A stretch of 64,000 nt of DNA from Candidatus Omnitrophota bacterium (GCA_044225175.1 JBGAJA010000002.1:216949-280948); one strand, 5' to 3'; shown: positions 1 through 64,000, numbered from the stretch's first letter. The notes: generated by a model not told the origin, from the letters alone. Made by a program: numbers and translations.

Positions 1-3000
1 GAAGTCATTGCTGGCATTAGAAAGAAATACAATTTAGCCGACCACAAGGTCCATCCAACTGTGGAACGCATGATCAAAGGTGCCCAAGAAGAGGCCCAAA
101 AGCATTTAGCGTTAAAAGCAGAAATTGAACGTGCCCTTGGTGAAGACAAATTAAGTGAAGTCAAAACATTGATCGAAAGCATGGATGACCCAACCAGAGC
201 TCAACCTATTGTCATGGCTGGAGGAGTACCTTTATTCAAAGCCATTAAAGAGGTATTAGCTACAGGTGGAAGTGATGAGATTCTTTTAAAGGATATTAAA
301 GCTAAGGTTGCACAATCTACCATTTCACCCCAATTTGAGAACATGGATGAAACAATCAGTCAAATGTCCCAAGACCCCATGATTTCTTCTGTCATAAGAG
401 CTTTAGAAAAAGCAAGACCAAATGAAACGGCGGGCGCCAAAGCAGAAACCAAGGACAAGCAAAAATCATCTACTTCTGGCGCTGCTATGGGTATTATAGC
501 TGCTATTTTAGGCTTTATCGGAGCAGAGAAGGTGATGCCTCCACAACAAGCCAAGGCAGATACGCCAACAACCATTTCAACTCAATATGAAGACATTCAT
601 ACAGAAACTATGGATGTGCAGCCTGCATCTTCTCAAGATTCTAAAGATAACGATCAGGGACCGGATGGAAATCATACGAAGGATACGGGGCCATTGGCAC
701 CTCCACCCCAGCCCATAAGCACGGCACCGGTAGTACCGAGTCATAATCCAACTCCTCCGGCCCCTGGTCCAGTACCTTTACCTGTGCAAATGCCTGTTCC
801 AAATACAGCTGCGGGAAACAGTCCGCCACCGTTTAACGGCCATATCATTTTATATCAGCCTATAACCTACCCTGAAAGAATGGGCTTAGTGGGGCCAAGT
901 GTAGGCTATAGACATGTATTAGATTCCTTAAAAACCGAAGGAGCTGTATGGAGGGTTCTACATCCAGGTATTAAACCATCTGCCCTGACTTTCTCCAAGT
1001 CAGCAGGCAGAGGAAATGCAGAAAACGGAGAAAATAATGCAGAAGCACAAGTAGGACAAGCAGTTAGAGTAGAAGTACCAGTTTCACAAAAGTTAAGTGA
1101 AAAGTTGGGTAGCGCGAGCTCTGTGCTCGTGAATGAAACAGAAACAGAAGTAAATGCAGTCAACGAAGTAAGTAGCAATGACAGTAACACAGTAGCAAGA
1201 TTAAATGATGTAGGGAACGGTTTGAAACCGTTCCGTACCACAGTAAGTGAAGTTCAGTCTGGAAATGCAGTACGCAGCATGCAACAAGCCCAAGTAGTTG
1301 ATGGGTCTATAAGCGATGGTACAAATGCAGTAGAAGTAGGCAAGACTCGTTCTGGTGACAGCAATGATGTCACTGTAAGAAGTGCTAACAATGAAAATGG
1401 TGTGCCTAGCCCAATCGTGCCTGGATCAGAAGGTGTGATCAAAGACGAAGAAGGTATAAGCGATCCGACTGTTTGGATTGGCGACGTAGACACTGCAGCA
1501 AATATAAGTTCAAGTAGTCTGTTATCTCGTGATACTCGCTCTCATACCGGTTCCATAGGTATGTCAAATGTTGAAGAAGCAGATGGAATACATAATAGTG
1601 ATGAAAATAGTGTGTCCAATGGTGCAAGAAGTACGCCAAAAGACACTGAAAATATTTCCGAAGTCAGAAGTTCTGTAGGTGCGTCGACTGATAACCAATC
1701 TCCCGTAGTTCCTCAAGGAGATGAAAAATCAGAGGCGCAACAAGTACGTTCAACCACAGCTGTTAGAAATGACAATAACGGCGGTGGAAATTCTCTGTTC
1801 CCCAATACTAATTCCCAATTATTACCCATTGATTTAGGCGCAACCCTAAGCGCTACCGATACCAGTGCTCTCAACATTGGTGGAGGCGAGTCCATTCTTA
1901 ATTTAGTCCATGCTCAAACAATTGAATTCATGCAAAACAATGGAGGTTTACCATGGTCAGCCAAACACTCAGCATCAAGCATTTTGTTACCTTCCCTCAG
2001 ATCAATTCCAGAATTGCAACAGCCCGTGACCACCTTAACAGGATCCACATCTATCTCATTGAATCTAGTGGCAAGATCTACAAGCGAGACGGTCTTTGCG
2101 ATGCCTGGCAGCCGCTTGGAGACAGTGATCGAGGCAGATTCAGTGACATCCTTGAACATCCAGACACTCTCAAGTGTCCCAGCTACAGCACCAACAACAT
2201 CAGTCTCCTTAACTAATACCAATAGCGTTACAGATAAACTCAGCCACACCCTTGGGGCTGCTCCAGTTGTACCGGCATCTTTAACTTCTCCAGTTAAAGA
2301 TGCCGTTGCTTCACAATTAACCACAGCCCAATTGCAACAATTGGTGGCTGAAGGTGCCAAGAGATTCTCTGGTAGAAATATTTTCAATGTGCTTGATATA
2401 CAAAAGATGGAAATGAATGCTTTCGATATCATGTTCGGTGAAGAACCTAACAGCACACAATTGATGTACGTAGGTAAAGATGACAGAGGCTATTTCATCG
2501 CTACATCTAAGGGAGTCAAAGACGGCTTAGCAAAAGAACAATTGCCTCAAGGTATTTCTGATAGGGCCTTTGAATTATTAGATTCCGCTATTGAAAGACC
2601 AGTCATTCAAATCGTTTCTGAGAACATTTTAAATGGCCGTTCATTTGCCATCACCAAAGATTTCAACTCAATTAACAATGAAGCCTTAGGCCATGTCAGC
2701 AAAGCTTTCTTTGGTAAACCATACGATTATGTCGCACTCAAAGTCTCCAAAGTCTCAGCGACACCATTTATGAATAAAGACCGTGCAGGAAAAGCAACTG
2801 GTGGAGCTGATATTCAAGGCCTAACATTGACTAACTTGGCCGATCGTCCAATGGCTAACAAAGAACAAGTTCAAAAACAAGCCCAAGATATTGATGAGAA
2901 AATTACTAAAGAACCACAAGAAAAAGCCAAGAACATCGTTGCCATCAATCAAGTGCAGCAACGTGTAGAAGCTGCTAAAAACACCAGAAATAACGGCGAA

Positions 3001-6000
3001 ATTAATACTGCTGCAACTTATGCCTTAGAACATTCAGCACCATTGAGATTTGAACAATTGCCAGAAAACTGGAAGAAGTATTTTGCTAAACAAATTAATC
3101 ATGAACTTGCCGTTGGTCTTCAGTTCACCATGTTTAACAATACCGTTCCTAATTCCATTGCATCAAACGCCATCTGGGGTAATTTGAACTTTGGCGGAGG
3201 ATTTGGAATTGCTCCAATCTTACCTAGCGGAATGACTACATGGGTTGAAATTGCTCAAATTGCAACCAACCTTGGAGAAACAAACCCCATTGGATTTGTA
3301 ATCCTAGGCGATCGTATCTTACAAGTGAAAAATGCTTGGATTAAAGACCAGCATGATGGATATGGTCATTTGATTCTAATCCGCCAAGGCACAGATGTAC
3401 AAAAAGTCATTGCAACCGCCTTAGTTGACCATAAGCCAGTTGCATTTGACCAAACATTAGTCTCTGATAGCAAAGATGCCTCCATCCTTAACTGGAGCTC
3501 TTTAGACACGTCCTCATTTGACCGTCTTGGTTTGGCTGAAGCTATGGAAATCATCCCGGGCCGTTTGGTCCACTTGATCACCCAAAGCGAAGACTTTGCC
3601 AGGATCTTTGGTTATGATCCAAACCGTTTAGCTCCATGGGAACAAGAAAAGAGCCCCACGGCCCGTATTCCAAGCACCCAAGAAATTCGCTTCTTCCGTT
3701 CTGGTTTATTAAACCAAAAAGAGAATTTGTTATTCATCACAGTCACAGAACGTTTAGAAGATACGAAGCTCAAGGATGGCAGCGCAATCATCAATGACGA
3801 AGACTTAGGTGCATTTAAAGATATTAAGAACAAGTTAGTCTTAACACGCGGTTTTGTGGTGGATTTATCCAAACGTAAGGGTGGGGAAGACAAGACAGCT
3901 GGTATCTATGAAGCTTACCGCGCCTTAGATTACGATGAAGATGGAAGCAAGGTCGGCATTCAATATGTGCCTTCCTTATTAAACATCGAAAACTTAAAGA
4001 AGACCATTGATGTCAACCGTGGATCTGATGACAAAGGCGAATCGGTTAGTTCAAGCTTTATTAATCCTATGACAGGAATTAATCAAGATATGTTCTATGG
4101 CAATGAATTGCCATATGCCATCCCACAATATTCCAGAAACATTGATGGCAGCTTATCTTTGAAACCTGTAGGTGGAGCATCCATTGGTTATCAAGATGGG
4201 CAACAAGTTATGTTTACGGCCATGTATTCACCGAAAGCCAATGAATTCCAAATGGCCTTTAATCAAAAGGACAACACATCTGTCATCACAAGCCAAGTAT
4301 GGTCTAAAGATTCTGGCGCCTTTGGTACGGTTGAAATTAAGGGAACAGAAGCATTGAATGGAATGGTCAAAACAGTCTTAGATGAAAACACGGACGTTTC
4401 TTTATTAAGCACAAGCGACATTCAAAATGGCAATGGCCAAAGCGTCCTTTATAATCCTAAGACCTTAAGTCACGAGAAGACATCTGATTATTTATCTCAA
4501 ATCATCAAAGTTCTACCCGCTGGAATTGCCCAAAAAGCAGATGTGATTCTAGTGGATACAACCAACAAACTGACCCAAAACATGGTGGTTGAACACAGCG
4601 GACACACCGTTGTTGTCTTAGCGCAAAATACAGTTGCAGCCATTGCTAAAGCTTTAGAAGCCAACAGCAGCTTAGAGACAATTGTAGTTGTGGAACAATC
4701 TTTGGATGAAAACTTAGCCAATACCATCAGAGCTTCTTCCGTAACTCAATTATTCAAAGGTTCTGAAGTCTATTACAACATTCATTCCAAGACCGTTGCC
4801 GTTGAAGTTGTGACCAAACCAGTTTATGGCCGTGTTATTATCCCTGGAAGAAACGTCATTTATTTAACAGACAAGCAATTGGTCAACCAAACAATCGCTG
4901 CTGCTCATGAAGTTCAAACAGGGGAAGAATTTGTCAGCCAAATCAAAGCTGGTAATGTGACTATCGGAAACCCAATTCGCTTAGTCAATGAAGCTGGAAA
5001 ACCAGCTCCAATCATTGTGACACGCGGGTTTAATTTGAAACCTGGTGAATTTGGTATCTTAGAACTTGGTAAACAATTTAGAGATCCTGTTGCTGAAAAT
5101 CCAAATGCCTATGCTGTTTTGTATGACACCAAGACCAATGAGTTCATTATCATCAATCATCCTCAAGACATTCCTTTAACAGAACAAAGAAAGCTTGTAT
5201 CCATCAATCGATTCATGTCCAAGGCGACTACAACAGTAGCTGATTCATTGGCATCAAGAAATCAAACCCTTATTCAAGTAGCTTCCAAAGTTTTTGCTAA
5301 CAATCCTCAACGATTAGCTGAATTTAAAGCTGTTATTGATCAAGACGTGAAACGCACATTGGATCGCAACATCACAGAAGCTGCTAAGGCTTACAAAGAC
5401 AAATTGACCAGCTTAGAAAAAGCCCAAAGAGAATTATGGGCCGCTCAAGACAGACAATCCAGCGTCGATTCTTTATCTAAGAAGGGTATGTTCGAAATCT
5501 TCCAAGCCCATGCATCATTACAAGCTAAGGGCAGCGCAGAATTGTTTATCAAGAGTGTGGTATGGAACCAAGCTTATATTGAAGCAGCAAGTTCCCAAAT
5601 CAATCCAGATGCTAAATACAAGACACCAGAAGAGTATTATCAACATTTCGTGGATGATATGGGTGAGAATGGTTTGGATGCAGCTGTGGAACATGTGATG
5701 GATGATTTCAAGGCTTCTTTGGCTAACCAAGGTCCATTCAATGCCAAAGTCCTTTCAGATTTACAAAAACAAATCAGCAACAATGATGACAAAAATCCTG
5801 GTTTATCCCAACAAATTTCTTATATTCAAGGATTACCTAACACACTCTTACATGTCACGATCCCAGAAACATATAAATTTACGCCAAAAGACAGAAGCAA
5901 TGTCTTAGATCTAAAGAACAAATCTGAAGAGGATGCCCGTCAACTTCAAGCTAAATTAGATGAATGGAACAGAACACAGAATGCTGATGTTGTTAAAGAC

Positions 6001-9000
6001 CTTTATTATTCTAAAGAAGAGATTGCAACCGGACTAAACTATTGGTTAAACGATGATGGGGCCACACAAGTTGATCCAAATGTACCTGTGACTGTCAGAG
6101 GTCGTTTAAACCGCTTGGAAACAGAAGTGATCACATTCTGGCAAACACAAAAGAAACTTCACGCTAATGACGGCCCAGATGTTCAAAGAGTGATTGATCA
6201 AGAGATTGCTAACACACAAGATGAAATTAAATTAGCTAAGAGAACTGTTCAAAGATTACTTGATGATCAATTCGCCTATGTCGCAGAACTTGAACATCCA
6301 GAACAAGTCTTACAAACTAAGATAGACATTGCCCGTGACCAAGCCAAATTGTATGGCCAATATGGCGACACATTAGGTTTAGCTTTAGATAGTAAAGAAA
6401 CCCTCGTTGATTGGACCAACAAAGTCCCTGTCGTTGAGAAAGATAAAATTGCTGCTGGAAAAGAATATTTGACAAATAAAGTCAAAAATACAATTCCAGC
6501 ACAAATTGTTTATCTTCAAATGGTCAAAGATAATCCTAAGACCCCCGATCATTTCAAAGGACAGATTGATGCCTTTATCAATAGTTTGAATGAAGAATCT
6601 AACTTTATCCAAAACCGTCAAATCCCTGACTTAGCTAAAGACAGCCAATATTATGAAGATGCAACGGGTGAAACTCCTCAACAAGTAGTTGACCGTAAAG
6701 TCCAATTATTAAGTGAACAAAAAGCCATTCTTGATCAAAGAGCATTGATCTTGAAATCTTTAGGATCATTTGCTGATGAATTCTTAGGAGATTCAACCCA
6801 ACGCTATGCTCAATTTGTCCAAAATGGCATTGATAAAGCCCTGCAGATTTATGGTGCACGTACATTGCTTAAAGATCCTGCTACAGACTTTGCAACAGGA
6901 CTAGCTGATTACAACCAAGGTTTAATTGCTCAAAGTTTGAAAAATGGCGATGTTCAAGCCAAGGCTGCTCGTGAACAAACCGCTTACGAAGAAACCGTAA
7001 AAGCAGCTCGTGATGTTCAAAAAGATGCTATTGAATATAACCAAAAGATCCAATCTCTTCTTCAAGAAGTATTAGCTGAAATTAGAAATAATCCTGCCTT
7101 TGCCGGCCAAAGAGATCAATTAGAAAATGAAGTCAAAGGTGCCTTAAGAGCGTATGAACAACCTGTTCCTGCTGTATTAGTTGGACGCACCGATGTGTTA
7201 TTACCAGATGGACAAGTGACCAATCTTTTTGCATACCAAGATAATCAACAAATCAGAAATTCACTTCGCATGGATATCCGCAAGACCAACACAGGCATGG
7301 TCAACTCGGACTATCTCTATGCCAATAACTTGCCAAATGGTGTCAATCTTTATGCTGGTACATTACAAGCAGAAAGCATTAACCAACGTGTCTTTGCCAT
7401 CGACATGCTTTTAACTCCAGAACAAGCCACAGCCGTTGATCGTTTCATCGCAGGATTCATTCGCCAAGACCAATTCCAAGAAGCCTTCAATGCCCCAGGA
7501 CAAAGCGAGAAACATACATACATGGTCATTGGTAATGGTTTTGCAGCTGCCAATGACAAGGGTTATTTCGCAGTGACAGGAATTGTGATGAAGGACGTTT
7601 CTCATGCAGACAACAATTCAAGCAACACTCAAGGCGTTCGCGTAGACATGGCCCGTAATTTGGATCAAGATGGCAACATCAAATTGGTCTTTGCAGGAGA
7701 CTATGTCAATAGCCAACAAAAAGCCATGACCAACATTAAGATCATGGATGTATTTTCTAATACAACGGTCGTCTCTGCAGACCGCTTGCTTGTTGCCAGA
7801 AACTCTTTTGCTGACCTTCAATTCGGACCTGACTTTGTTGTTCCAGGCAGCCAACTTAAGGATGAAGAAGGCAATGTGATTAGACAAGCCACATTGAGTT
7901 TACGCGCTGTCCGTGAATATTCAAGATCATGGGACGGTTCTTGGACTGCAATCAACTTCCCAACTGTAGGTACAACCGTGCAATACCGTGACATCACCGT
8001 AGGTGTCAGCCGTGCTATTGGCCAACCACGATATGGATTTACGGCAGCATACAAGAATTTCAGCACATATTACAGCTACCAAGGCGGAGAAAAAGCTTAT
8101 GGAGCTGCTGCCAACTTCAAGGTATTTGAAGACTTACAAGCTAATGTTGAAGTCTATCACAGTGCAACAGCCAAATACGGGGTCAGATTTGACTTTGAAC
8201 AAAGAATTGCCCAAAAATGGGGTGTGAATGTTGGTTCTGATGTCAATGAAGGAGGACTTACCCCAGGAGTTGGAATCAAACGTTATTTAGGTGGCAATAC
8301 AGAAAACGATTTTGATGCCATTACAGATTTGACTAAATCTCCAGCTATTTTTGCTGACACATTTGCAGCTTTAAAGAAAAAGCAAGTCACTGAAAACGAA
8401 AACATATTGTATGTACCTGAAGAGATTTTTGATCAAGCCAAAGCCTTGTATGCTATCAACCAAGTGACAATTCCTAACGATGCTCCAGAGTTAACAGCAT
8501 TAGTGACATTAGATGGCCGCTATGTCATGCTTCCAGCTCTTGGCTTAATGCAAGCAGAACAAGACGCCCGCTTCGCTGATGATTCTCATGGGGTAGCTAG
8601 AATTGCCCAAAATATCCCAGCTAAAATCACCAAAGACCAATACACCAAGGCTGTTGCCGCTAAGTTAATTGAGACTATCAAAGACATTGACCAAAAAGAT
8701 TTAACAGAAGCTGGTATCTGGGGTAATGGCACCATCAACAAGTATTGGAGTGAAGTTGGCGGCCAAGAACTATTCTTAGGTACTCAAGATACTATGGTCG
8801 TTCTTCCAGCCAACACAGCTAAGATGGCTGAATTAACTGGTAATCCAGGATTTGTTAGCGAATCTCCGGTTGTTATCGAGTTGGCATACAACGCCTTAGT
8901 TGAAGCCCACAATGGTCTAGAGATAGTCAAGTCCATGCCAACTGTCCAAGGAAACTTGAAAGATCTCTCTCTTGATACAATCGTTGCCACAGGCGTTCTT

Positions 9001-12000
9001 ACTATCGATGCTAAAGATTTAGCCACAGTTGAAACAACTCATCCTCAAGGATTAGCCAAAACAAATTTAACGAATGAACAATTGCAACAAGCCATCAAAG
9101 AAGGCCGTGTTCAATATGTCCAATTGTTCGATAAAGCCAATGGCGGATATCCTTATGCTAAGCTCGGCGTTGATGGACAACCAGATTATGATCAAAAGAA
9201 ATACTTTGCAGACACCCAAGATCATGAAGGCTATGAACCTGTTAGAACATTATTAGTCACAACCCCATCTAATTTCTCCATGATGAAAGCTGATGAACCT
9301 CCAGCAGCAGATCAAACAGTGTTAAGCCCGGCTGCTAAACAATTTATAGAAACTCAAATGAAAGATAAATCCATCGTATGGCTTCCTACTGGTGAAATGA
9401 AATATGTAACAGAAAAGCAACTGGTCGAAATGATCAAAGCAGGTACGGTTGTGGCTAATGAAGTTGTTAATAACAAAGGCGAAAAAGAGTGGCACTTACA
9501 GGTTAAAGTTAATGGAACATGGAAAAGCATTCAGTTGTCCAAAGAGATACTCGATACCGATGACAAACAAGCAGTTGCTAAAACATCGGATTTAGAAAAC
9601 GGAAAAATTGCTGTATCTATTTCAGAGAGTGAACTCAGAGCTCTAGTGAGTAAGGAAGGATTAAACGGACAGCATTTAACAACAAAGCATATCGAAGTAG
9701 AAAGCAAAGGTTACCCATATTTCTTAGACGCTAATTCTAATGGATTAAAAGATAAAAATGAGACAACGATCATTTACGGTTCTAAACCTAATGAATATAA
9801 AGAACGCTATCTTCCTCTTTTAACATTAAAACTTAAGGACATCGTCAGATTAAACAACGATGGTGAGAATCTTATCAGAGGCATTCAAGCCAACAGCTTC
9901 TTGGTCAACACCAAAAATGATTCGTACTATGTCTCTCTAGAGCAATTAAAAGCACAATACAATACCATCCGTCAAGAAGCTAAAGACTATCAAGTAACCA
10001 AGTTTGGTGTCAGTGGCTCACCGCTGATGAGAGTTTACTTAGGCTATAGTCAATTAGCTTCTCGTGTGGAAGTTGTGGAAAATTCAACTAGTTCAAAGAT
10101 TTATGCTTGGGACCAATTAACAAAAGAAAAAGGTTCTATTACAGTAAAAGGTCAACCTATCGGTCAAGTAACAGTGTCCAAAGATGCCCAAGGTAACAAA
10201 CGAGTCACAACCACAGATTTTAGGGCCAACAACACACAACGTATTGATATTTACAACGCTCAAAACAAACTCGAACGCAGTGAAAGACCATTGTCACAAG
10301 AAATTATTTATTTTGATACTGCGACTGGCCATGAAATTTATTCTGTGTCCATGGATACGGCTAAAGAACCAGGAGTTTCCTTAACAATCAATAACATCAA
10401 GGTAGAACATGTGACAGGCGTTTATGATTTTGAACCAAATGGTAACGGCCATAAAGTGGTCACATTCATTAACTTAAGAAATCTTTCAGATAATCGTGGA
10501 TACACTTCTGTTAGGAGATCCACATATAACAACGGTGTTGTCACAGAAGATTTAACAGGTTTTATTGAATTACCAGAACAGATCACAAGTAAAGAAGAAT
10601 TGTTCTTAAAAGTGACAGACAACTTTAAATTCAAAGATGCTTACGTTTATGATGAAGCTGGCAGTCATAAACTATTAAGAAGAGATGTTTCCTTCAAACC
10701 AAATGGCAATTGGATTAATGCCTGGTCTATTGTTGGAGGAGCTGAAGCAAAAGCACAGAAAACAGATGTTGTTAATTTCAATAAGATTATAGAGCATCGA
10801 GAAATTAAAGAAGCTTTAGCAGCCATCGATGTAACGGGCGATACATTATTAGAGCAATCCAGGGTCACCACAGATGATCAAACGGTCATATCCATCGATT
10901 TAAGACGTCCTTATGACCCTATTCAAAGAAAGATCATCACTGTTCGTAAAGAAGCAGATATCCTCCATAAAGATGTAACAAGAGTGATCGAAATCATTGT
11001 TGGTGTAGAGTTTGATCAAAGAACAGGAGAGGTTACAAAGTCCTACAAGCTGACACCAGATTATCAAATCAAAGGAGAATTCGAGACACTAACAGATTCG
11101 CAAATCACCTCCGCAGGATTAAATGTCAAAGCTCAAGGCCTATTGGCAAAGATCGCACCAATTTTGAAGAATATCCCTGAAGTCAAAGACCAAGACCTAT
11201 TCACAGCATTAAGACAAGTCGGTATTAACGAGAATACAAAGTTAACTGTACTGCGCGAAACTCCTAAAGCTTTAGAGGACGGTCAATATAAAGACAAGAA
11301 CTTAAACACCATTTATCACTTCTTAATTCCAAATGACAGTCGTGGACGTGATATTGCTGTGTTATATCCCAATAAAGATCTCGTGCTTAATTTGTGGTGG
11401 TTAGAAGGGCAAGATCTCAAGATCCGTGATAATGGAACAGTGAAATTAAAAGTTGGCGTTATCCCAGCTATGGTTGTTATAGATCAACAAGGTAACTTGA
11501 AAGAAACATTGGTTTATAAACCATCCAATGAAAAAGAACCAGCCTATAGCGTGTCTTTAGTAGACCGTAAAGAAGGCAAAGTAGTTGAGGGTGGACGTGA
11601 ACTAGCAACAGTTTCTAACGGTGCTGGACGATTATTAAAGGTTGAATACAAGAATGCAGATGGATCCACAGACTTAACAGCCGAAGGCTATGAGTATACC
11701 GTGCTTGATTCCAAGGTCAAGATGAGCGCATTTTATACCAATGGGGGTCAATTATTAGCTGAGAAGTATAGATACATTATTGCTCAACCAATGTTAAGAC
11801 AATTAGGGATGGTTTACAAAGGACAAGAAACAGTCATCTTTGATATTCGTTCCCCGTTCCGTAAGCCAATACAGTCTTTCTGGGATTTAGGCAAAACCAT
11901 TGAAGAAAAACAAATTGATTCTCAAAGAGTGATTGTCAAATCTTTTGAAACTGATCCTCAATTCTCAGCGATCAATAAGCGTGTGGTTGACGGCAATGAA

Positions 12001-15000
12001 GTCTATGATCAGTCGACAGTGATTGACTCCTATGAAGCTGAAGGGTTTGACTACCGCAAGTTCAAGAAACAAAGAACCCCGTATATCAATGATCAAATCG
12101 ATCAGAACGCAGGTGGTAAACACGTTCCCGATGTTTTACAGACATGGGGATCTGATTATCCTGCATGGGCCAACATAATTTCTGTTTTGATTGGTTTAAT
12201 TTCCTTTATCCTTATCTTTGGTAAACCTTTAGCATGGATAGGCCAGATCGTTCGATTCTTTACAAGCGAGAACAAACAAGCAGCCAGAAATGTTGCCCAA
12301 AGAATTGCTCCAAAAACGATTCAACAAATGGTCCTCGATTTAAATGCTTATCGTCATAGCGGCTATGGATTCCAAAAGGGCGCTCTGAATGAAGCCTACG
12401 GGGCCTTGGTTCGTGAATTAAAAGATCGTTTGTATGCAGGCGAAACATTAAACGGCATCACCACAGAATATTTCAGACGCTACCTTGAGAATTTCTTTAA
12501 ACCTGTCATGTCAAGAGTGTTGAACAAAGCTGAGTATCAAAGACAATTACAATTGATTGCAGGATATGGATTAGAAGAAATGTTCATCATGGAAGCAATT
12601 AATCGCGTTTCTGATAAAACAGCTAATGTAACTGCATCGGTTGATTTCTATCGATTCTATATAGCTATGCAAGAAAAGACGCATAATCCACTATTTGGTA
12701 TCAATGTTGAAGCTGATGCTAGATTATGGTCTTCTCTCTTATGGTTGCATCAATCTGGTCCAATTGTTAATCCAGCAAATAAGAAAAAATCAGACACCAT
12801 TCATCATGATGATGTCGATGGCATGTTTAGAACACCTGGCTTTATTAAATTTTATTCTACAGCTCAAGCTGAACAGGGTGGACTAACTGGTCGAGATTTG
12901 ATTGAAGAAGAATTAATGAAAGTCATTCGCTCAATTCCTGGAAAAGAAACAGTCACCATAGTTGAAGGATATGAATTCATCAGAAAAGCTTTGCCAAAGG
13001 ATATTCCTGCTGATGTCGCTCGAAAGGGGATCACGGTCAATCAAATAATAATGAAGGTTTATCCTGATATTAAAACCAGTGTATTTGGTATTTTAGGGTG
13101 GATCCGTATGATCATGAACGCCACCCCGCAATTTGTTGTAGCACTTGGAGTTTCAGCTTTAGCTTCCATCGGTTTAATTTGGATGAAGAAATCAGATATT
13201 GAAACATTGCAGATGTTGAGTTCTGGATATTTTGTTGCCGCTATCCTTGCTGTAACAGTCCTTACATTCTTTATGTACAAGGGAGCTAAATACGTTATCC
13301 GCAAAGCTTCCCCTGCAGCCTTCCACTTATTGTTAAGTATCTCAATGTTGGTCTTGATAGCCTTAGGCTGGTTTGCTCATGGATCCCTTGCGGCCATGAC
13401 AACAGCTGCCTATGCTGGATGGTTTACAGGGCTGACGATTTTCATCGCAGGTGTCGGTTTTATTTATCAGGCTTTGAAAGGGATTGACCGAAGATATTCT
13501 CAAAAAGTTTTAAAAGATAAGAATAAAGATAATTCAGATGAATGGACCATGGTTAATTTGGATGAACATGATCGCACACCAAAGGGGACATTGGGTCGTC
13601 AAGCAAGAGCTGCTGGGGTGATGATGGCCACATTATTGGCTAAATTTGTGGCTAATGTGTTTATTTGGAAATGGATCGCCGTACCGATATTAATCACATT
13701 AAACAGTCAATGGCAAATGGCAGATCTTTTTGGAGTGTTCCATGGCTTCACAGTACCCATGGGAGATAAGATTATCCTTGGGTTGACTCTTTCTGTATTC
13801 GCTGCCATTTTTATTTTGGACATATTTGCTTATTTCTATCTTATCGAAGGTGCTTTAGGGTATTGGATTGCTAAATTCAACGGTAATAATCGTATTAATT
13901 TCTGGAAACGCAATCAGGTTGTCTCCTATGGAGTTTTTGCGATAGCCGTTCTTGGCTTGGCAGGACTACTAGGAGTTCCTTATTTAAGCACAGGATTAAC
14001 AACAGCACTTACTTACATAGCTTCATTTAAAACTGTTGCAGTGATCTTGAATATTTTGAGTCACGTGCCTTTTGTGGGTACCACCCTCGTCAGTATGACA
14101 GGGCTTAAGATAGCAGTATGGATGGGCGTATTACTTAAACCAATCAATTTAATCTTAGGTTTCTTGAGCATTGAGAAAATTGGCGGTGACTCAGTGGTCG
14201 AGAAATTCGGTGTCAAAATGCACAAGGATACGGTTAAGATTGATCCCAATGGCGCAGCTCATCAATTCATGATCAAGAATCTTCCTCCAACGTATTTTAA
14301 TGATCAAGGCCAGCGCGAGGATTTAACTTTAGCACAACGTACAGTTGCCTTCGCCAAAGCCTTTAACATGATCATCTTGACCCTCTATGAAGATGATCTT
14401 ATTAATATGGATGAAGCTAGGGGCATGATTTTCGTATTTAGCTATGCAAACAAAACACGCCAAGAATCAGAGCTTGCAAGTCTCTTTGGTGAAGATCCAG
14501 ATGAAAACAATTTCTTAAACGGAACTATTATTAGAACACCACAGCTTCAAATAAGACCTGAAACATATCGCGTTCAAGACAGATTACAGAAATTTTTCTC
14601 AAGCATTTATATGGATATGTACCACATGCCGATTTATGAAATGATTAAAACGCACAGCACGATATTACCGTTTTTAGCTGAACCTGTTTTATATCCTTTT
14701 GCAGACCAAGATGTTAATGAATTTGAAGGGATTAATTCTCCCTACAAGCTCAATGAAAGAAAGGGCCACACAATTGCTAAGTATGGCACATTCTTAACTC
14801 ACATTATCAGAAGATCTCCAAATCAATGGGATAATTTCAAAGCTCGTCTCAGACGTGAGACAGAAATCGCCAGAGCTAATGGGACAATTGATCAAGAGAT
14901 CTACAATAGACGAATAGCAGATCTACAAATGATGGAGGATTTGAAATTTGGTCAACGCTTAGGAAAGAAGGAATTGGATCCTGCTGGCAAAAGGCATGCT

Positions 15001-54000: not shown

Positions 54001-57000
54001 ATATCTGTAACTTCACCTGCTGAACAACTACCTCAAGAGACCAGCCGAGATCCAGATCAATCGATAGATGAAGCTATCATCTGTGACAAAATTAAAGAGA
54101 TGGAATCGCTAAGAAAAATTGCTAAAAACCATCGAGATATTGAATTTATTAAAGGAATGTTACGAGATCTTACAGCACAGACCAGTTCAATGTCTCTTTC
54201 TAAGAAAACAAGAAAGCTCATTCATATGCTTCGAAAAAAAATTGATTCAGCTCGAGGGATTCCTGGTCAACAACATCCAAGTAGGAATGATGTGGATTAT
54301 GAGATATGGCGCATTGACACTGAAATCCCCGCCAGCGTAAGCATCATTAGGTTAGATGCACAAGATAAGTTTGCCCAAGGGGCAATTAAGGCGATTGCAT
54401 GGCTTAGGACTAATGGATTTATCGCGATGGCAGAAGTATTGGAACAGATATTGAAAGAAAATAATGTGGAGCGAGGCCCCTATAAAGGTTTCTTAGCAAC
54501 GACCCATTCTGTAGAAGCTCCTCGAGGCAATAGAGAGCTTTTCATCATGAAAATAAAATTATCAGATGCAGAAGAATATGCTCAATACTTAACTGTGGAT
54601 GAAATCGCCGCGAGTTTGATTCATGAAGTAGGTGCCCTTCCTCAGTTTGGTTTCTCGGATAGAGTCAATACCCAACGCCATCAAGATTTCTTAATGGAAA
54701 TTCGTCAAGGACGCTCTTTTTCTCTTTCACGAGCTTCAAGGAAAGAAGAATTACTCAAGAGCCTGCACTTCTTGTGGAGATATGTGGTTGCAGATAATGA
54801 AGCAGCGATCCAAAATGTTTTAAGTCAATGGAAAGAAAAGGGCTACAAAGTTGGGACATTCTGGCTGACAGGACGTGATGCAACGATGAACAAAGGCCAT
54901 GAAGGGACATTCTTTGCACATCCTAATAAGATCCTTCATGATTTAATCGTTTCAACATTGGATGCCCATTATGATCCAGCTCAAAAACCTTTAGCTCATT
55001 TTGCGCTTGCCATTGATGAGGTATTACGACGACCCAGAAATGTAAAATCCAGTTTTGCCTTGTGTGTTCTTGTGTTCGATGATCATGATGTGATCGTAGC
55101 TGTGATTGACAGTGAACAAGGCCTTAATATTAGCGATGAAATACAAAAAGAACGATCCAATGATGTTATTCAAAGTGCAGGACTAGGTATGGAACGGTTT
55201 TTAGAGCCCCATAGTAATAACGTGACAACGAGAATATCTTCTCAACTTCAAGTCTGGAAATCAGATCAAAATCGAACCTTCAACCGTTCTCAACAACAGC
55301 ACAATTTAATCTCTCAAGGTGTGTTATGGGACATGCAGCTTCTTTATGATTCTTTAATATTAAAAGTTGCTCTTACGCCACTGATCTTAGGATTTGGTAT
55401 TGCATGGATTGGTTTTGTTAAACTCATAAGCCTTAAGAGTCTTCTTATATCCATAGGTGGCGCTCTTTTTGTCCGTGCCGGAGGTGGAGTAGAACACCTG
55501 CATTTGTCTGCATCACTTCCTTCTATATTTACAATCGTTGTAATTGCTTTTGCTGCTTTTATGCTCATGGTCCTACCAGGCGACCAAGCCCCCGGGGCAA
55601 AACTTAAAAACAAACAAAACACTTTAAACAACCTCTTTGCAAAATCGAAACGTGATCTTGAGGCAATTTCAATGGATGATCCAAAGGAATTGATCAAAGA
55701 CCAGAATTGCTTAAAGATATTCCAAGAATTCATAGAAAAGATCCGATGGTCTTATTTATTGAGCTTAGCAAGAAAACCAGAAAACAAGGCCGCCCACTTT
55801 GAAGTCAACCAATACATGGCAGAATTAGTTTTAGAGATGCGAAAGGCTTTGATTAGTAGGTATCAAGAAGTGTTAAATAATTTAGATACTCAAAATTCAC
55901 TAGATAAAGAAGCTAGAAGGTCGATAGCCAGTGCCCTCGAATTGCAGATAAGAAAGCAAATGCATTTGATTGTGCCTGAACACATCGAGATTGCCGTTGC
56001 AGGAGATGAGGTGTTCTTCTTTTATAAAAAGATCATGGTTCGAGTATATTCAAAAGAGAAAGAACATCATCAAGAGCTGATTGAGCTTTTATTTGAGAAT
56101 AACAAGATTGAGTCTATTGCTGATGCAACGGATGCGATCAATGGGTATCAAATAAAAGTTTATGACATAGACCTTCAAATTAAAGTTGGGCTGCAATTAT
56201 TCTTAAAAACAAAGCTAGAAAGTTTCGAACAACAGATTTTAGATCAGTTGGAAAAATCTCAAAGTGAACCTAGGACAGAATCACCAGATCGGCATGATTT
56301 TGCTATCCAGGGATTTGCCTCGCTGCTTTTGACCAATCAAAATCTCAGAGTATTCTTTAAGAAAGCCTTAGGCAAATATTTTAAGCCATTGTTCCAGTGC
56401 ACCTTAAACATGAAAAGTATTTCACCTGAATTAAGAAAGAAAGCCTTAGCTGCAATTGGTGCTTATTTTCTTTTAAAGCCAGAGCAAGTACGACTTTCAG
56501 ATATGGATTCTGCAGAACATCTAGTATTTGATGGCTTTGCAGGGCAGGATGTTCCAGGACGATGGCAAGCCATGCCAGGACATGAAAAGGATAAATTGCC
56601 TGTTATCATCGTGATTACCCCTCAGATACCTGAAGGATTAACACAAACTATCCAAAGACATTTTAAGACCCATATTTTATATCTGAACATCACAGCAGTG
56701 ACTACCCAAGGAGTTGAATACAATAGCCTGGGGCACATAGAAAGTACTAATCTTCAATATGTGTTTAATCAATTAAAGCAACGTTTAGATGTTTTAAAAG
56801 ATGACAATGTTGTTATTGCTTCTGGACAATCAGCGGCATCTGCTCTTTTATGCATAAGAAAGGCATGGGACATTCTTCCTATGGCAATGAGATACAATGA
56901 TAGTTCGCTTATCTTGGATAATTTTATTGATGACTATCATACGTATCTAAGAAGAAAATTAAGAGAACTTGATGGGCTCATAGATGAAGAAACTGCAACG

Positions 57001-60000
57001 GACGCAATGTCTATAGTTCAAGAAGTTATTTGGGCCAATAGGCCAAACCAAACACTAAAAAGAGTTAGATTAAAGAGTTCTACCCCATTTAGAAACGTAC
57101 AAAGAACGGACATCCTTTGGTCTCCTCAACATTTAATTGGAGCTGAATCGTGGTCCACCCCTGCTTTATTTGCTTTTGATCAAAGAATGTATGAAGAAAA
57201 TCATAATGATTATCGAAGGTTATTATTAAGAATATTGAATTTAGATAAGTATCAGAATTCAAGAGGTCTTATCCATGCCGTCCTTGAATATCAAAGTACA
57301 CAAGAGCCAGGAGTTAATAACTATAAAAGCCGCATTCTAGGTTTTCTTAATCGGAATAATGTCCTTGGTCGCTACAGAATAACTGCGGTTCCACCTGTAG
57401 AACAAAACATAAAGGTGTATTCTAGGAAAGACTTTAAAAGCCTTCCAACGATGTTACCACCCCAGGAGCCTACCAAGAAACGAGAGCATTGGGACACAAG
57501 CTGGCCTGAACCAACGGCCGTCGAAATAGAGGATGCCAAAGCAGTTCTAAAAAAATTATCAAATCAACCACGACCAGATTGGGGTACCAAGTTTATCCAA
57601 AGTCCCTATGGAGATCTAAAATCATCTAAATCAAGAATATTAAGAGCTCTCTATTTTGAATATCCGGATATTGCAGCAGCTATTCTAGCTAGTGCCGGCG
57701 TTAATGTGCATGGAAACCTAAACAAGATCCTTTGCCCCAATAGAGATGAGGAGCGCATTGAATATATTCTTCTCATTAATCTGTTTAACATGTCTTTAAC
57801 TTTTTGCCTTCTGGATCCTCCAACGGTTATCAAGGATCCCAATAAGACTACAGGTGAATCCTTAAATATTAAGTTTGATGTCAGAGGCATGGCAGGAGTT
57901 TTTGAACACCTTCCTTCACACATTGCCTCAAGTATTTTGTACCGTGTTTCAGAACCTAATTTTATCCTGCTTGTTAAAAGAACGATTGCTCATGTTATTA
58001 AAAAACAAGGAATTACAACTGGGGCAATAGAGAGATTACTTTTTGCAATGCCGCAATCTAAAAGAGATCTGATTTGGGAGAAGTTACTGCCAAAAGAAAG
58101 AGAATTCTTTGGGGATCAGCCTTCTTTACCTGCCCCTGTGCATCATACAGCCCGTGTTGATAAGCCAATCCCACGCGTTGCAGGAAAAGGAGAGGGAAGG
58201 CTGGTCGTAATACGCTCCGAGCATCCTACAGTAGATGAAATACGAAATATTCAACCAGGTTCGATTGTAGCGGTTGAATATTTACCTACCTCAGACACCC
58301 ATGTAGGAACATTTCAAGGTATTATCACATTTCGTCCAGAAGGAAAAACATGCCACGCCCAAGCTCAAGCCAAGCAATGGGAAATTCCCCATGCTTTAAT
58401 ACCTGGCCCAGAATTTTTGATCGAATGGGAGGGCAGATTTATTCGGATGACTGTTGAAAGAGACAAGGTCAGTTTTGCAGGAATTAAAGAGCATGCGATC
58501 AAAGACAAAGAGGTTTCAACGGCTATTGTCTTACCTACTGTGGACCTTTCCCCAGAAGCTCCATTAATACTTCCTTCTGGAGACATCAGACTTTCTCGAC
58601 CTACGTTGATGGGTTATAAGCCAGCATCCCTTAATCTTTTTTCGCAGTATCCTATCCAATTATCTAATACATCTATTACAGCAAGTGTTGAGCAGGGCAT
58701 GGGTCTGACATTTAAAATGTTTCTTTATTTATTAGAGAAAGAAAAGAATAAAGATACCTTTTGGAAATATAGAGATGACGTTATTAAATCTAAGAATGAT
58801 AAGGATTTACAAATAGCTTTGGAAACTCTAAGAAACTTTATCGAAAGGGCCTTTATTTCTTTACATTATGAGCCTGAATTTGAAGAGCTTTTCAAAGATC
58901 TAATTGCCATGGTAGAAAGTTCTGGGGCATTTATTCGCCTGGCAACTAACGCAGAAAGTTTGCCGGATTTTCCTGGATTTGGATCAGGTAAATATCTGAC
59001 TATTGCACATGTTACCTCTCGAGAGGAGCTTTGGGAGGCAATCCCAAAAGTCTATGCCTCTCTTTGGAGCTGGGAAGCCTATATGGAAAGACAACAGCGG
59101 GGTGTGGACCAGTCCAAAGTATTTTCTGCTATATGGGTCGTGCCTTCACAGCCTTCTATCTATGCCGTCAATATCCACACCTCAGACGTATATCTGCAAG
59201 ACCCCAATAGAATGGTCATTGAAATAGTTTCCGGTCAAGGTCAAAGCCTGGTCAGCAGTGATGAGGAATTTGCAGGACTGCCGACATTGATTGTGTTAAA
59301 CAAGGCAACAGGTGAAATTATTGAACAAAGCCCTGGAACAAAACAAAATAAGATCATTCTAAATGACAAGGGAGGCACTCAAAGAGTACCCATTGAGGAA
59401 ACAGAGGAATTTCTAAACTTAAATGATGCTCCTGAATTAATCAAATCACTTTGGGAAATAGGAATGGCAGCAGAAGGATTCTTTAGAAAGCAATTAGGAG
59501 ATGATCTGAGTCACCAAGAAATAGAAGCTGCGATCATTAAGAAAGAAGGACGTTGGCATATTCCTTTATTGCAGACCCGCTCTGCTGGCAATATTAACCA
59601 TGTTTCTGCTATGCATGCCTGGTTATTTATACCCATTGTTCCTATGATGATGTCCACAATAGGTATGGACGGTTCCATGATCATCCCTGCAACTCTGCTT
59701 GTGCTGGGTGTTTTGATGATTTCGACTTTCCGTCGATGGTTTTCTTATAAAAAGCTCATCGAAATGACCCATACCATGTGGTTTAAAGTTTCTTCCATGC
59801 TGGCAAGCATTACCCTCCTTGGCTGGATCAATTTAGAATTCGTAGCCCCACAATTTCCCAAAGACATATCTCTTCCTTTAAAAGTCTTACTTAATTCTTT
59901 GATTTTTATGGTCTTTACACTTGATTTGGATTTTTTTGCCCAGCGTATGTCGAAACAGGGAGTTTTGTTCAAACAAACTCTTGCAATAATTCCGACTGGA

Positions 60001-63000
60001 CTTGTGATGGGGGTCATTTCTACTTTAAGTTTTTGGTACTTTAATAAATTTGTAGCTCTCAATGAACATGTGGGTTGGAATAATATTTCATCTGCATTTA
60101 TGTTTATAGTGCCCTATATGATTTTGACCTACTTATTAGTGATCGTTCTTAAGGCTAAGGGAAAGAACTTAAAAGAGGCCATTCAATGGAAGATATTTAA
60201 ACAAGATCTACTCTTTGTGGTGCTGGGAGGAATACTTATATTGGTTTTGATGATACCTGTGACTACTCTATTTATGAAAACTGATCATGCGGTGCCTTAC
60301 GCCATCATCAATACCCTAAGAATTGTTAGTCTTATGTCCACAGTAAAATGGAGAACATCTGTTTATTCTGCTATTGTTGAGATCATTCGTGGTAAGGATG
60401 GTCAGGAGAAGCAGAAGGAAGCATTCTTGTTAACACGAGGTCATTCTGTAATACGAAGCTTTATTGTCGTTTTTCCGGAATTTGCGCCATACGCAGAGAT
60501 AATTGATGGATTCACTACCCAGTATTTCAGCGCACTCTATACATGGGCCACCAATAAAGAAGGGTTTATTGTTAAAAATGAACAGTTGCGCAATAAAAGG
60601 GCGTATTTAATTTTCTACGGCGTCTTTGGGCCGATTATTTGGTTAGTTAAGAAATCTATTGAAAGAAATAAAGCAAGTCCTCAGTTAACCAATCATACGC
60701 TGATAACACCTGTTCAAGCTATTGAACCACCACTTGCTCAGGACAATTTAGTTGAAAAGCCCCCCATTATTTTTTCCTTAACGGATATCCAGTTTGAATC
60801 TGCTAACCAACCTTTGATGCATCAGCCTGAAAGAGCAGCCCCACAGCCTCCATTAGGGATTGTGTCATTGGATCCTGTTCCAGCAGACGTATTTGCAGTT
60901 AGGCAGGGAGCATATTTCCAGGACCAAACGAATATTCTAGAAGGCTTTTTGAATGACACAGATTATGAAAACTTAAGAAGCCAGGTACGGACCCAAATGC
61001 AAAAAGATCCAAAGCGTTTTACAATTCGTCTATCCTTGGATCGTTTGAACTGGAAAGAAGATTTTGTTCTTGTGAATTATGAAGGCTGGAGATTTTTATT
61101 CCCCAAGGCATGGGTGAAAAGAGAGCAGAATGGCCATCTTTTAAGGTCTGCGATTGAGCGTGCCTTAGTCTTTGAAGATCCTGGTATGCGTTTGGGCAAA
61201 GGGGAACCATTTATCTTTTTTCCTGTTAAACATAATTTGAGTTTTAGCGCTAATAAAGGAGCTGCAGATCATTTTGTGGCAGATTATGAGAAGGATAGAT
61301 TCATTTTGGTTAATCGCTCCCTGATTCCATTGATCTCCCGACTAGAACATAGATTCCGAAGTGCTGGTTTAATTCTTCTTCAAGTCCTTATTGGCCACGA
61401 ATTACGAAGAAAAATCTACCATACTAACGATGATGCTACTGAGAGAGAATATGCGTTATTGAGTCAGGAAATCTTTGCAGGATTGGCAGATATTAATATT
61501 GAAGAAATTTTTAATGCCTTTCAGAATGAGGGGCTTATTAATGACTCTACAAGAAAAGTCCTGATGCCTGCAGAAGTTAGCCGTTTTGGGGCCAAGGACC
61601 ATCGGTTGGTTAGAATGTTAAACCGTGCTTTTGTAGGTGGGAGTGTGATCAAAGAAGGAAGTCAAGTTCTTGAAGTAGGTGCAAATCATGGAATTCTAAC
61701 CAGAAGCTTAGTCGAGGCCGTACGGGCCCAAGGTATTCAACATGTTTCATTTGTGACGACCGATGATTCTCAAAAGGCTTTGGTGGATACGGCACGTCTC
61801 TTAAAAGTCAGAATGGGAGGGTATGATGAGGTGCAGGTACGCCAGCCTTTTGCCAAGAACGAGCAAGAACTCTTTGATGTAATTTTTTGGAACCCCTCAT
61901 GGCTGCTTAATAATCTGGCAGAAGGAAAATTAGGAGAGTATTTAGAATTCTTCTCTACTCGATTATCTGAGACCGGAAGGATTTTTATTATTTTTCATGA
62001 AACTAATGCTCAAGAATTAGATCTTCGTTCTATTGCTTTGAATCAAGGCATGAATCCTACAGAAATTGATGTGTACAAGACCAAGCATGGACGGATTGGA
62101 TTATTTGAGTTTGTTTCCATAGAAAAATTAATGAAAGCAGATCAAGAAGATTTTCATATTACGGCCTATGATTACCGAAGGGAATCTGAAAATTGTAAGA
62201 AGACTAATCTGGCTGTTTTAAAATATTATAGATTTATGGCTGAAGTTGTTGAAAGGACTGCCAAGCATTTCATTAAACCAGAAGGTGATTTCGAGAAGAC
62301 AAGACGAGAAATTTCTTTCTTCAATCAAAAAAGGTCTGGTTCTCACTGGAACCCTCTTATTGAGAATGAAGAACGCCTAGCCCAATTCTTAAAACGAAAC
62401 CTTCGTCTAAGTAAGATGCAAGTAAACATTGTCTTGGATCTTGTCAGTCTTTCGATGAGAGCAATAAATAAAGAAAGGGCCTTTTTCTCGCAATATCAAT
62501 ATGTGATGAGTGCTATAGCCCCTAAAAGAATCAGCACCAAAATTCCAAAGTCATTTGACGAGCAAATTAATTATTTTAAGAAGACCCCAGAAATTTACGG
62601 TGTCTTCTTATTAGGCACTGTACTGCTTTATCTAGGGTGTAGACCACTCATTAATGAGTATCGAATATTTACGGATGCTCTCAATGCTGTTTGTGTGGCA
62701 ATCATCATGTTGATCTTTTCAGACCCCTGGTTAAATAAACTTGCAGAATCAATTTATAAAAGAGTTTTTCATTCCTCTAAAGTAAGTAAGAAGATTAGAA
62801 TCTCTGCTTCCAAGCCCACATTTACATGTGCAATTAAGGATATTGCAAAACACACACTGGTCGTTAATTTCGTTGATGCCACAAAACTGGAGATATATCT
62901 GGATCACCGTGGCAATGTTCTCGTGATGCCCACAGAATCCCATTTAGATAATCAACACTTTCAGTATGGCAGAGAAAAACCAACACAATTATTGGCTGAT

Positions 63001-63999: not shown

Positions 64000-64000
64000 A

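Follow-up and report, generated by a model that had tools for sequence, protein, structure and literature searches.

Giant genes are well documented in the bacterial phylum Omnitrophota, and type II secretion-like genes, pilZ and genes for sugar ABC transporters have been reported as neighbours of published giants. Open reading frames (ORFs) of more than 20 kb are found in 77 of 116 Velamenicoccia genomes (PMC10066038), and the 39,678-amino acid (aa) giant protein of Velamenicoccus archaeovorus LiM, peptides of which have been detected according to work cited in PMC10066038, is the type sequence of the Archaeovorins (PMC10066038; 10.1101/2023.11.21.568195). Forty-six genes above 90 kb, coding for up to 85,804 aa, have been split into an Archaeovorin and a Dockerin type and are proposed to act in prey or host attachment (10.1101/2023.11.21.568195). 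Archaeovorin genes exceed 90,000 bp (>30,000 aa) and encode numerous transmembrane (TM) helices; most full-length members include a divergent SecA DEAD domain, and the domain set further comprises HEAT, glycosyltransferases, methyltransferases, PPDK_N, GNAT, peptidases, glycoside hydrolases and NUDIX, preceded by a domain-poor N-terminal region with a C39 or S8 peptidase and a signal peptide near the start (10.1101/2023.11.21.568195). A wider collection holds 916 proteins of at least 10,000 aa, 94% of them membrane-targeted and 80% sequence singletons, which extend to 147,155 aa and 147 TM helices and of which the largest carry 25–50 distinct Pfams; a protein of at least 10,000 aa is present in 93.8% of complete Omnitrophota genomes (Nielsen & Lui 2026, 10.64898/2026.06.07.730766). 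Here we describe a 64,000-nucleotide (nt) stretch of DNA (GCA_044225175.1, JBGAJA010000002.1:216949-280948), referred to below as the window, which lies entirely within one such gene and encodes a conserved membrane unit resembling the fungal glucan synthase FKS1.

The sequence-only reading of the window had described a single uninterrupted frame running out of the window at both ends, with stops abundant in the other five frames and a GC content of about 39%, and in all of this it was correct. Re-translation with a programmatic count of stops in each frame found no TAA, TAG or TGA among the 21,333 codons of frame +1, which is open at both ends, whereas the remaining frames contain 1,499, 1,838, 1,556, 1,241 and 927 stops and have longest open runs of 103–225 codons. 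At the measured GC content of 39.7%, base composition predicts a stop frequency of 0.067 per codon, and the log10 probability of a stop-free frame +1 is -646. A run of 21,333 stop-free codons cannot be chance because its probability is of the order of 1e-646, and the possibility of a chance ORF was rejected. Leave-one-out codon usage prefers frame +1 in 32 of 32 segments of 2 kb, a result that is unchanged when stop codons are excluded from the score. Codon-position GC is uniform along the window (about 0.49 at the first, 0.35 at the second and 0.33 at the third position, in descending order), GC content and skews show no break, and the ORFs of at least 120 aa in other frames amount to four shadow ORFs; no tRNA genes or Rfam families were found within the 64 kb. 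The window is thus confirmed as one genuine uninterrupted coding frame, and we infer that it is translated as one polypeptide.

Repetitive DNA is confined to four tiny tandem repeats, the longest a duplicated 54-nt unit, and no dispersed repeats longer than 55 nt occur in the window. Repeat-mediated mis-assembly was rejected in view of this non-repetitive sequence, and nothing in the sequence itself, as distinct from reads, suggests that the assembly is collapsed or mis-joined. A GC-rich palindrome (GCGTCCGCCAAAGGCGGATCCGCC...) lies within the coding frame at nt 21277-21312.

Within this frame the window carries what is, on the evidence of sequence and predicted structure, a complete FKS1-like unit, composed of TM helices, a GT-A-type domain of glycosyltransferase family 48 (GT48) with the FKS1 active-site residues, and a second set of TM helices (Table 1). 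The Pfam profile PF02364 matches with an E-value of 1.8e-51 (172-176 bits against a gathering cutoff of 37.2), yeast FKS1 (PDB 7xe4) is matched in three collinear pieces (E 1e-22), and alignments to eukaryote-type GT48 sequences derived from transcriptomes and metagenomes span some 1,030-1,090 aa (positions ~4570-5605 of the window product). The active-site set of FKS1 comprises E851, D1080, K1082, D1102, N1104, E1155, K1172, E1173, H1195, N1220, E1221, D1222, K1246 and R1248 (PMC10499315). Ten of these residues are identical in the window (K1082, D1102, N1104, E1155, H1195, N1220, E1221, D1222, K1246 and R1248), and all ten except N1220 occupy invariant or nearly invariant columns of an alignment of 29 bacterial and eukaryotic sequences (A3); the window has Q for D1080, G for K1172 and D for E1173, and the alignment around E851 is weak. 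D1102 and D1222 correspond to aa 5241 and 5337 of the window. AlphaFold modelled aa 4581-5780 with a predicted template modelling score of 0.77 and with most of the catalytic core above 85 in predicted local distance difference test (pLDDT). In a Foldseek search of the PDB the 13 best matches are all FKS1 or FKS2 (E 4e-25 to 7e-16, with about 1,000-1,200 aligned columns), and the next tier consists of cellulose, hyaluronan and chitin synthases (BcsA, CesA, HAS and Chs). The first TM cluster, the predicted cytoplasmic GT-A domain and the second TM cluster together make up the full design of a processive synthase-translocase; judged from sequence and model, there is roughly an even chance that the unit has its predicted function, the export of beta-glucan.

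The likeness to fungal FKS1 and FKS2 and to the plant callose synthases (CAZy GT48) extends from the family profile, which scores far above threshold, and the ten shared active-site residues to a predicted fold that, in the case of FKS1 and FKS2, can be aligned through the TM helices that flank the GT domain on either side. In contrast, identity to these enzymes in the GT core is only 28-34%, and a midpoint-rooted distance tree separates the bacterial GT48 sequences, as a clade, from their eukaryotic counterparts. Besides the three substitutions in the active site, the window differs from FKS1 in that it has no match to FKS1_dom1 (PF14288), which is present in the eukaryotic GT48 matches, and in that the protein surrounding its GT48 unit has more than 11 times the length; Rho1 is not expected to play a regulatory part. 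With BcsA and other membrane-integrated processive GT2 synthases the unit, as modelled, shares the combination of a cytoplasmic GT-A domain and a transmembrane polysaccharide channel (fold matches at E 2.5e-8 to 1e-6), but it belongs to a different CAZy family, has no PilZ/cyclic di-GMP domain and shows no match at the sequence level.

The unit belongs to a longer conserved and collinear core (Table 1). A GT48 profile scan of one genome per GTDB species returned 46 loci, and the best match to the window among these species genomes is 48% identical; a GT48 profile scan of viral contigs gave no match. In 38 of the 46 loci the core-bearing frame runs off both ends of the fetched DNA, and of the 17 loci that measure at least 20 kb, 11 are uninterrupted over their full length, one of these lying on a complete chromosome (OY759724.1). 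As a comparison independent of the window, these loci support a biological origin of the giant frames around the core. Beyond the core, tblastn detects almost no similarity between the window and the relatives' 10-kb flanks, and in some relatives (L047, L012 and L014) the core is a separate gene of 2,376-2,776 aa amid other very large genes on the same strand. The N-terminal part of the core includes a beta-rich block of about 700 aa that is always found directly upstream of the first TM cluster, both in the window and in the 14 loci aligned with it (alignment A4), and whose invariant positions include R276, R290, P418, D420 and R422-G-R424. Searches with 15 orthologues gave no Pfam match for this block, neither a PDB profile search nor a word-indexed protein search matched it, and a single-sequence AlphaFold prediction was unusable (pLDDT 33.6). 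It might correspond to the RHS-like antiparallel beta-helix that has been reported for Omnitrophota giants.

Almost all of the 46 loci are titled Omnitrophota, with some 'uncultured Planctomycetales' and a few Elusimicrobiota, three of the latter being Endomicrobiia (L015, L017 and L023). The closest protein relatives of the GT48 region are without exception partial ORFs on short contigs of Omnitrophota metagenome-assembled genomes (MAGs), with 40-71% identity in the GT core, and the Endomicrobiia relatives are more distant from the window than the Omnitrophota ones. A eukaryotic or viral origin was rejected on comparing these values with the identity to eukaryotic sequences given above. With high confidence we therefore take the window to be a 64-kb piece from the interior of a real giant membrane protein gene of the Omnitrophota type, whose source, as indicated by protein homology, would be an uncultivated bacterium belonging to Omnitrophota or very close to this phylum; the two judgements are made jointly.

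Several of the loci deserve mention in their own right. The GT48 core of the three Endomicrobiia loci, one of them on a complete chromosome (L017, OY762939.1), lies in ORFs of at least 11-17.7 kb, which indicates that very long GT48-bearing genes are not confined to Omnitrophota. Ten loci with an Omnitrophota-type core are titled 'uncultured Planctomycetales' or 'Planctomycetia' (L001, L008, L009, L011, L018, L019, L021, L025, L034 and L041), titles that may reflect coarse labelling of bins from the PVC group. A protein from an NCBI MAG labelled Candidatus Njordarchaeales (P0005, on a 4-kb contig) combines GT48 with radical SAM and B12-binding domains and is 40% identical to the window; although annotated as coming from an Asgard archaeon, it is probably a mis-binned fragment of an Omnitrophota giant gene. 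On the JGI contig Ga0366834_1016563 (L047) a GT48 gene of 2,376 aa stands between a gene of 4,280 aa and one of more than 3,911 aa, all on the same strand, and matches to GT5 and HPr, together with a faint one to GNAT, were found in the downstream gene. Single in-frame stops interrupt long frames in L010 (nt 13040, TAG, and nt 17026, TAA), L012 (nt 6782, TAG) and L014 (nt 16682, TAA), in each case with at least 500 and up to 4,346 open codons of the same frame on either side; they could represent tight gene boundaries, sequencing errors, pseudogenisation or readthrough.

Table 1. Features of the 64-kb window and of its predicted product, in order of position.
Feature	Residues (aa)	Position (nt)	Strand	Basis and remarks
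Single ORF, frame +1		1-63999	+	21,333 codons, 0 stops, coding statistics throughout; open at both window ends; internal segment of giant gene
Region poor in TM segments and domains	1-4054	1-12162	+	One weak hydrophobic segment (aa 161-179); no Pfam, PDB or NCBIfam match
Conserved collinear core (~2,660 aa)	~3200-5860	9598-17580	+	28-48% identical by tblastn, with E as low as 0 (for example aa 3229-5859 for L003)
Beta-rich conserved block	3360-4054	10078-12162	+	Alignment A4, 15 species; directly upstream of first TM cluster
TM cluster A, ~9-11 helices	4055-4722	12163-14166	+	Hydropathy; precedes GT domain
GT48 (FKS1/callose-synthase-type) glycosyltransferase domain	~4750-5433	14248-16299	+	Strongest Pfam stretch aa 5201-5433
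TM cluster B, ~9-10 helices	5412-5905	16234-17715	+	Hydropathy; C-terminal membrane domain, putative glucan channel
Ala/Lys/Asp-rich low-complexity linker		17989-20370	+	Degenerate 15-nt units, 54-nt x2 tandem; sole repetitive DNA in window
HEAT repeats	9204-9258	27610-27774	+	Pfam HEAT_2, E 1.3e-09, 38.6 bits (cutoff 27.7)
Recurring ~180-aa domain, one copy	11138-11324	33412-33972	+	Self-BLAST
Orphan TM-rich module, ~22 hydrophobic helices	12520-13700	37558-41100	+	Hydropathy; homologue search empty
GNAT acetyltransferase-like stretch, borderline	15994-16076	47980-48228	+	Pfam PF00583, E 6e-4, 20.5 bits (cutoff 20.7)
Recurring ~180-aa domain, other copy	18082-18258	54244-54774	+	Self-BLAST
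Phosphoenolpyruvate (PEP) synthase/pyruvate phosphate dikinase (PPDK)-type ATP-grasp nucleotide-binding domain	19558-19863	58672-59589	+	Pfam PPDK_N, E 6e-16, 59 bits (cutoff 27)
Methyltransferase-like stretch, below threshold	20557-20631	61669-61893	+	Pfam Methyltransf_12, E 0.0086, 17 bits (cutoff 30)

As a whole, the product is predicted from hydropathy to be a non-repetitive mosaic that crosses the membrane many times, with some 50-80 helices grouped into roughly a dozen clusters. The number of hydrophobic segments that resemble membrane helices varies from 49 to 79 with the Kyte-Doolittle threshold, a count too uncertain for assigning the soluble modules to the inside or outside by parity, and the soluble stretches between the clusters measure 230-2,400 aa. 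The Cys content is low (0.22%), and self-BLAST reveals only two weak internal similarities. Full-length searches against Pfam, NCBIfam and the PDB identified three firm domains, namely the GT48 Glucan_synthase domain, HEAT_2 and the PEP synthase/PPDK ATP-grasp domain, and two borderline families, GNAT and methyltransferase; PDB sequence searches with all chunks of the product matched FKS1 and PEP synthase and nothing else, NCBIfam returned PEP synthase only, and Pfam at E <= 1 added nothing credible. The ATP-grasp domain is further matched by the NCBIfam PEP synthase model (E 2.6e-14) and by PDB 8a8e (E 2e-6), and no swivel or PEP-binding domain was detected beside it. In the N-terminal region aa 1213-2969 are homologous to locus L043 by tblastn, and no relative of aa 1-500 was found in metagenome contigs; the 43-mer at nt 1-43 has no exact match in IMG/VR or in JGI metagenome contigs. 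The recurring domain of about 180 aa is present twice in the window and once in L014 (Ca. Zapsychrus exili, nt 12314-12718, tblastn), with the invariant motifs GP..GFL.T, Y..Y.T and HE.G in alignment A5; it has no PDB match, and its sole Pfam signal is a non-significant one to Zincin_1 (E 0.098).

Set beside the described giants, the window gene comes closest to the Archaeovorin or 'multi-enzyme' type, although it is known from an internal segment with both ends missing. Like the Archaeovorins it is a stop-free, non-repetitive ORF of tens of kb with dozens of TM helices, poor conservation between species and nearest homologues in Omnitrophota, and it shares their sparse and divergent domains (HEAT and PPDK_N firmly, GNAT and methyltransferase at the borderline, and a glycosyltransferase); its length is at least 63,999 nt (21,333 aa) and open at both ends, against more than 90,000 bp for the Archaeovorins. 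It differs from them in having no SecA_DEAD, peptidase, NUDIX, GT5, GT1 or glycoside hydrolase domain in 21,333 aa, and in that its glycosyltransferase is of family GT48; the three giant-gene papers contain no mention of glucan synthase (PMC10066038; 10.1101/2023.11.21.568195; 10.64898/2026.06.07.730766), and the GT48 scan of GTDB species genomes returned no locus titled Velamenicoccus. The Class 1 'multi-enzyme metabolic cluster' giants likewise carry several Pfam families along a membrane-anchored chain with none dominating, each family being present once in the window, and the TM density of the window (about one helix per 270-430 aa) is of the same order as that of the most TM-rich protein in the same study (about one per 370 aa); unlike them, the window offers three firm and two borderline families in 21,000 aa as opposed to 25-50 distinct Pfams, and no sugar-metabolism cluster (starch synthase, phosphoglucomutase, ROK kinase) was detected in it (Nielsen & Lui 2026). 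From the Dockerin-type Omnitrophota giants the window is set apart by the absence of dockerin, TSP3 or Ig-like tandem repeats, neither PF00404 nor PF18884 being matched and self-BLAST showing no internal repeats of this kind. With repeat-built giant adhesins, such as the Dockerin type and, as cited in PMC10066038, the large ORFs of Chlorobium chlorochromatii, it has extreme length and an association with a host-attached lifestyle in common, but not their tandem domain repeats.

The sequence-only reading had placed the gene in the bacterial giant-gene class, which its single coding frame of at least 21,333 codons upholds. Two further statements need qualification. Proteins of this size, called extremely rare, are so across life as a whole but are common in Omnitrophota, and a length of at least 21,000 aa does lie inside the known range of the largest bacterial proteins but not demonstrably near its top, given the maxima quoted above. 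The window thus represents a further, highly divergent member of a documented class rather than a record, and its length is mid-range for the phylum.

What the product does, and whether it acts as one chain, can be read in more than one way. A real frame might nevertheless encode a polyprotein or fused operon, the chief alternative as to mechanism, whose units would be separated by proteolysis, perhaps through C39 or S8 peptidase domains located in another part of the gene, or produced from internal starts, so that they are co-expressed in a fixed ratio. The stand-alone cores in relatives, flanked by very large genes on the same strand (L047, L012 and L014), are what such an arrangement would lead us to expect, as is the mosaic order of modules with almost no collinearity between species outside the core, and West-Roberts et al. 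(10.1101/2023.11.21.568195) raised the possibility of cleavage by N-terminal peptidase domains. However, the window holds no peptidase domain or recognisable cleavage motif, and in 38 of 46 species the frame around the core has no stop anywhere in the fetched DNA, which points to continuity being maintained; we consider a polyprotein unlikely while granting it some weight. A different reading follows the published model for the class, according to which a mostly extracellular chain binds prey or host and degrades its wall, with the glycosyltransferase-like parts remodelling or salvaging sugars (10.1101/2023.11.21.568195). The three-fold higher abundance of the V. archaeovorus giant protein in attached cells (PMC10066038) speaks for such a weapon, and so do the very long soluble segments of 1,400-4,000 aa between TM clusters. 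Yet Pfam finds no glycoside hydrolase, lytic transglycosylase, peptidase, dockerin, lectin or adhesin domain in 21,333 aa, the firm enzymatic domains use cytoplasmic cofactors (UDP-sugar, ATP), and wide conservation is limited to a synthase whose active site is intact. The adhesion and degradation model thus has no direct support in the window, even though the roughly 93% of residues that are unannotated could still hold such functions, and we judge it distinctly improbable for this protein.

The two remaining explanations concern the nature of the gene itself. Metagenome assemblies can be chimeric, and a chimeric or collapsed contig would mean that the open frame exists in no single genome; against this, a frame that crosses a mis-join would stay open only fortuitously and 21,333 stop-free codons cannot be chance, the sequence is non-repetitive and uniform in composition and codon usage, and frames of this kind surround the homologous core in assemblies made independently for 46 species, which leaves an artefact with very little probability. 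Repeat-type adhesins and non-ribosomal peptide synthetase (NRPS) or polyketide synthase (PKS) megasynthases are the commoner kinds of very large bacterial gene and account for most bacterial proteins above 10,000 aa outside Omnitrophota. The two weak self-BLAST similarities and the absence of Ig, cadherin, VCBS or RTX domains from the window argue against an adhesin of this type, just as the absence of condensation, adenylation, ketosynthase (KS), acyltransferase (AT) or carrier domains argues against a megasynthase. Both are refuted for the 64 kb examined, which contains neither tandem adhesin repeats nor C-A-T or KS-AT-ACP modules, and we assign them next to no probability.

Returning to the giant membrane protein, its mode of action might be pictured as follows. 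The chain would be inserted into the inner membrane while it is being translated, with the cofactor-using modules facing the cytoplasm, namely GT48 with UDP-sugar, ATP-grasp with ATP, GNAT with acetyl-CoA and the methyltransferase with S-adenosylmethionine. The GT48 unit would polymerise a beta-glucan, probably 1,3-linked, and thread the polymer through its own channel to the cell surface, and HEAT and the lineage-specific segments may serve as scaffold or contact surface. The whole could then operate as an assembly line at the membrane that supplies a host-dependent, ultra-small cell with a surface coat or with a matrix for contact with the host. More generally, we tentatively suggest, as something possible rather than probable, that the GT48 synthase and the upstream beta-rich block form the single conserved centre of an entire subfamily of ORFs, giant or very long, that is found in Omnitrophota and Endomicrobiia, that these proteins primarily build and export a beta-glucan coat or host-contact matrix and are not lytic weapons, and that bacterial GT48 is a deep sister of the eukaryotic FKS and callose synthases.

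A number of observations weigh against this picture. The functional part of it draws on about 5% of the residues, whereas approximately 93% have no detectable family, so that selection cannot be checked over most of the length, and an exhaustive phmmer search of 1.84 billion representative proteins gave no match at E <= 1e-3 for the 1,181-aa orphan module. SecA, characteristic of most full-length Archaeovorins, has no Pfam match in the window even at E <= 1 and may lie outside it. The window contains no marker gene, and its taxonomic placement derives from protein homology only. The separate or stop-broken cores of some relatives indicate that a single polypeptide is not obligatory for function, and the published interpretation stresses prey adhesion and cell-wall degradation, not polysaccharide synthesis (10.1101/2023.11.21.568195).

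The giant frame itself is of a kind already known, and the part that may be new is the conserved GT48 core; a search of one literature library found no paper linking GT48 or glucan synthase to giant proteins of Omnitrophota or Elusimicrobiota, an absence that is not proof of novelty. The frame adds one example to a class that is documented yet functionally opaque, and the orphan membrane module illustrates the extent of lineage-specific sequence in giant genes. A more useful, concrete handle on function is offered by the unit of some 1,300 aa that combines an intact active site of the FKS1 type with a putative channel; it recurs in long ORFs of at least 46 species and suggests a synthetic, coat-building role beside the published degradative model. 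Research on GT48 has treated it as a family of fungi and plants, yet a sizeable branch of it is bacterial. Should the core turn out to be general and active, these giant proteins would gain a first testable biochemical function, and the beta-1,3-glucan synthases of fungi and plants would gain a bacterial sister branch, which bears on the origin of the enzyme that makes fungal walls and plant callose.

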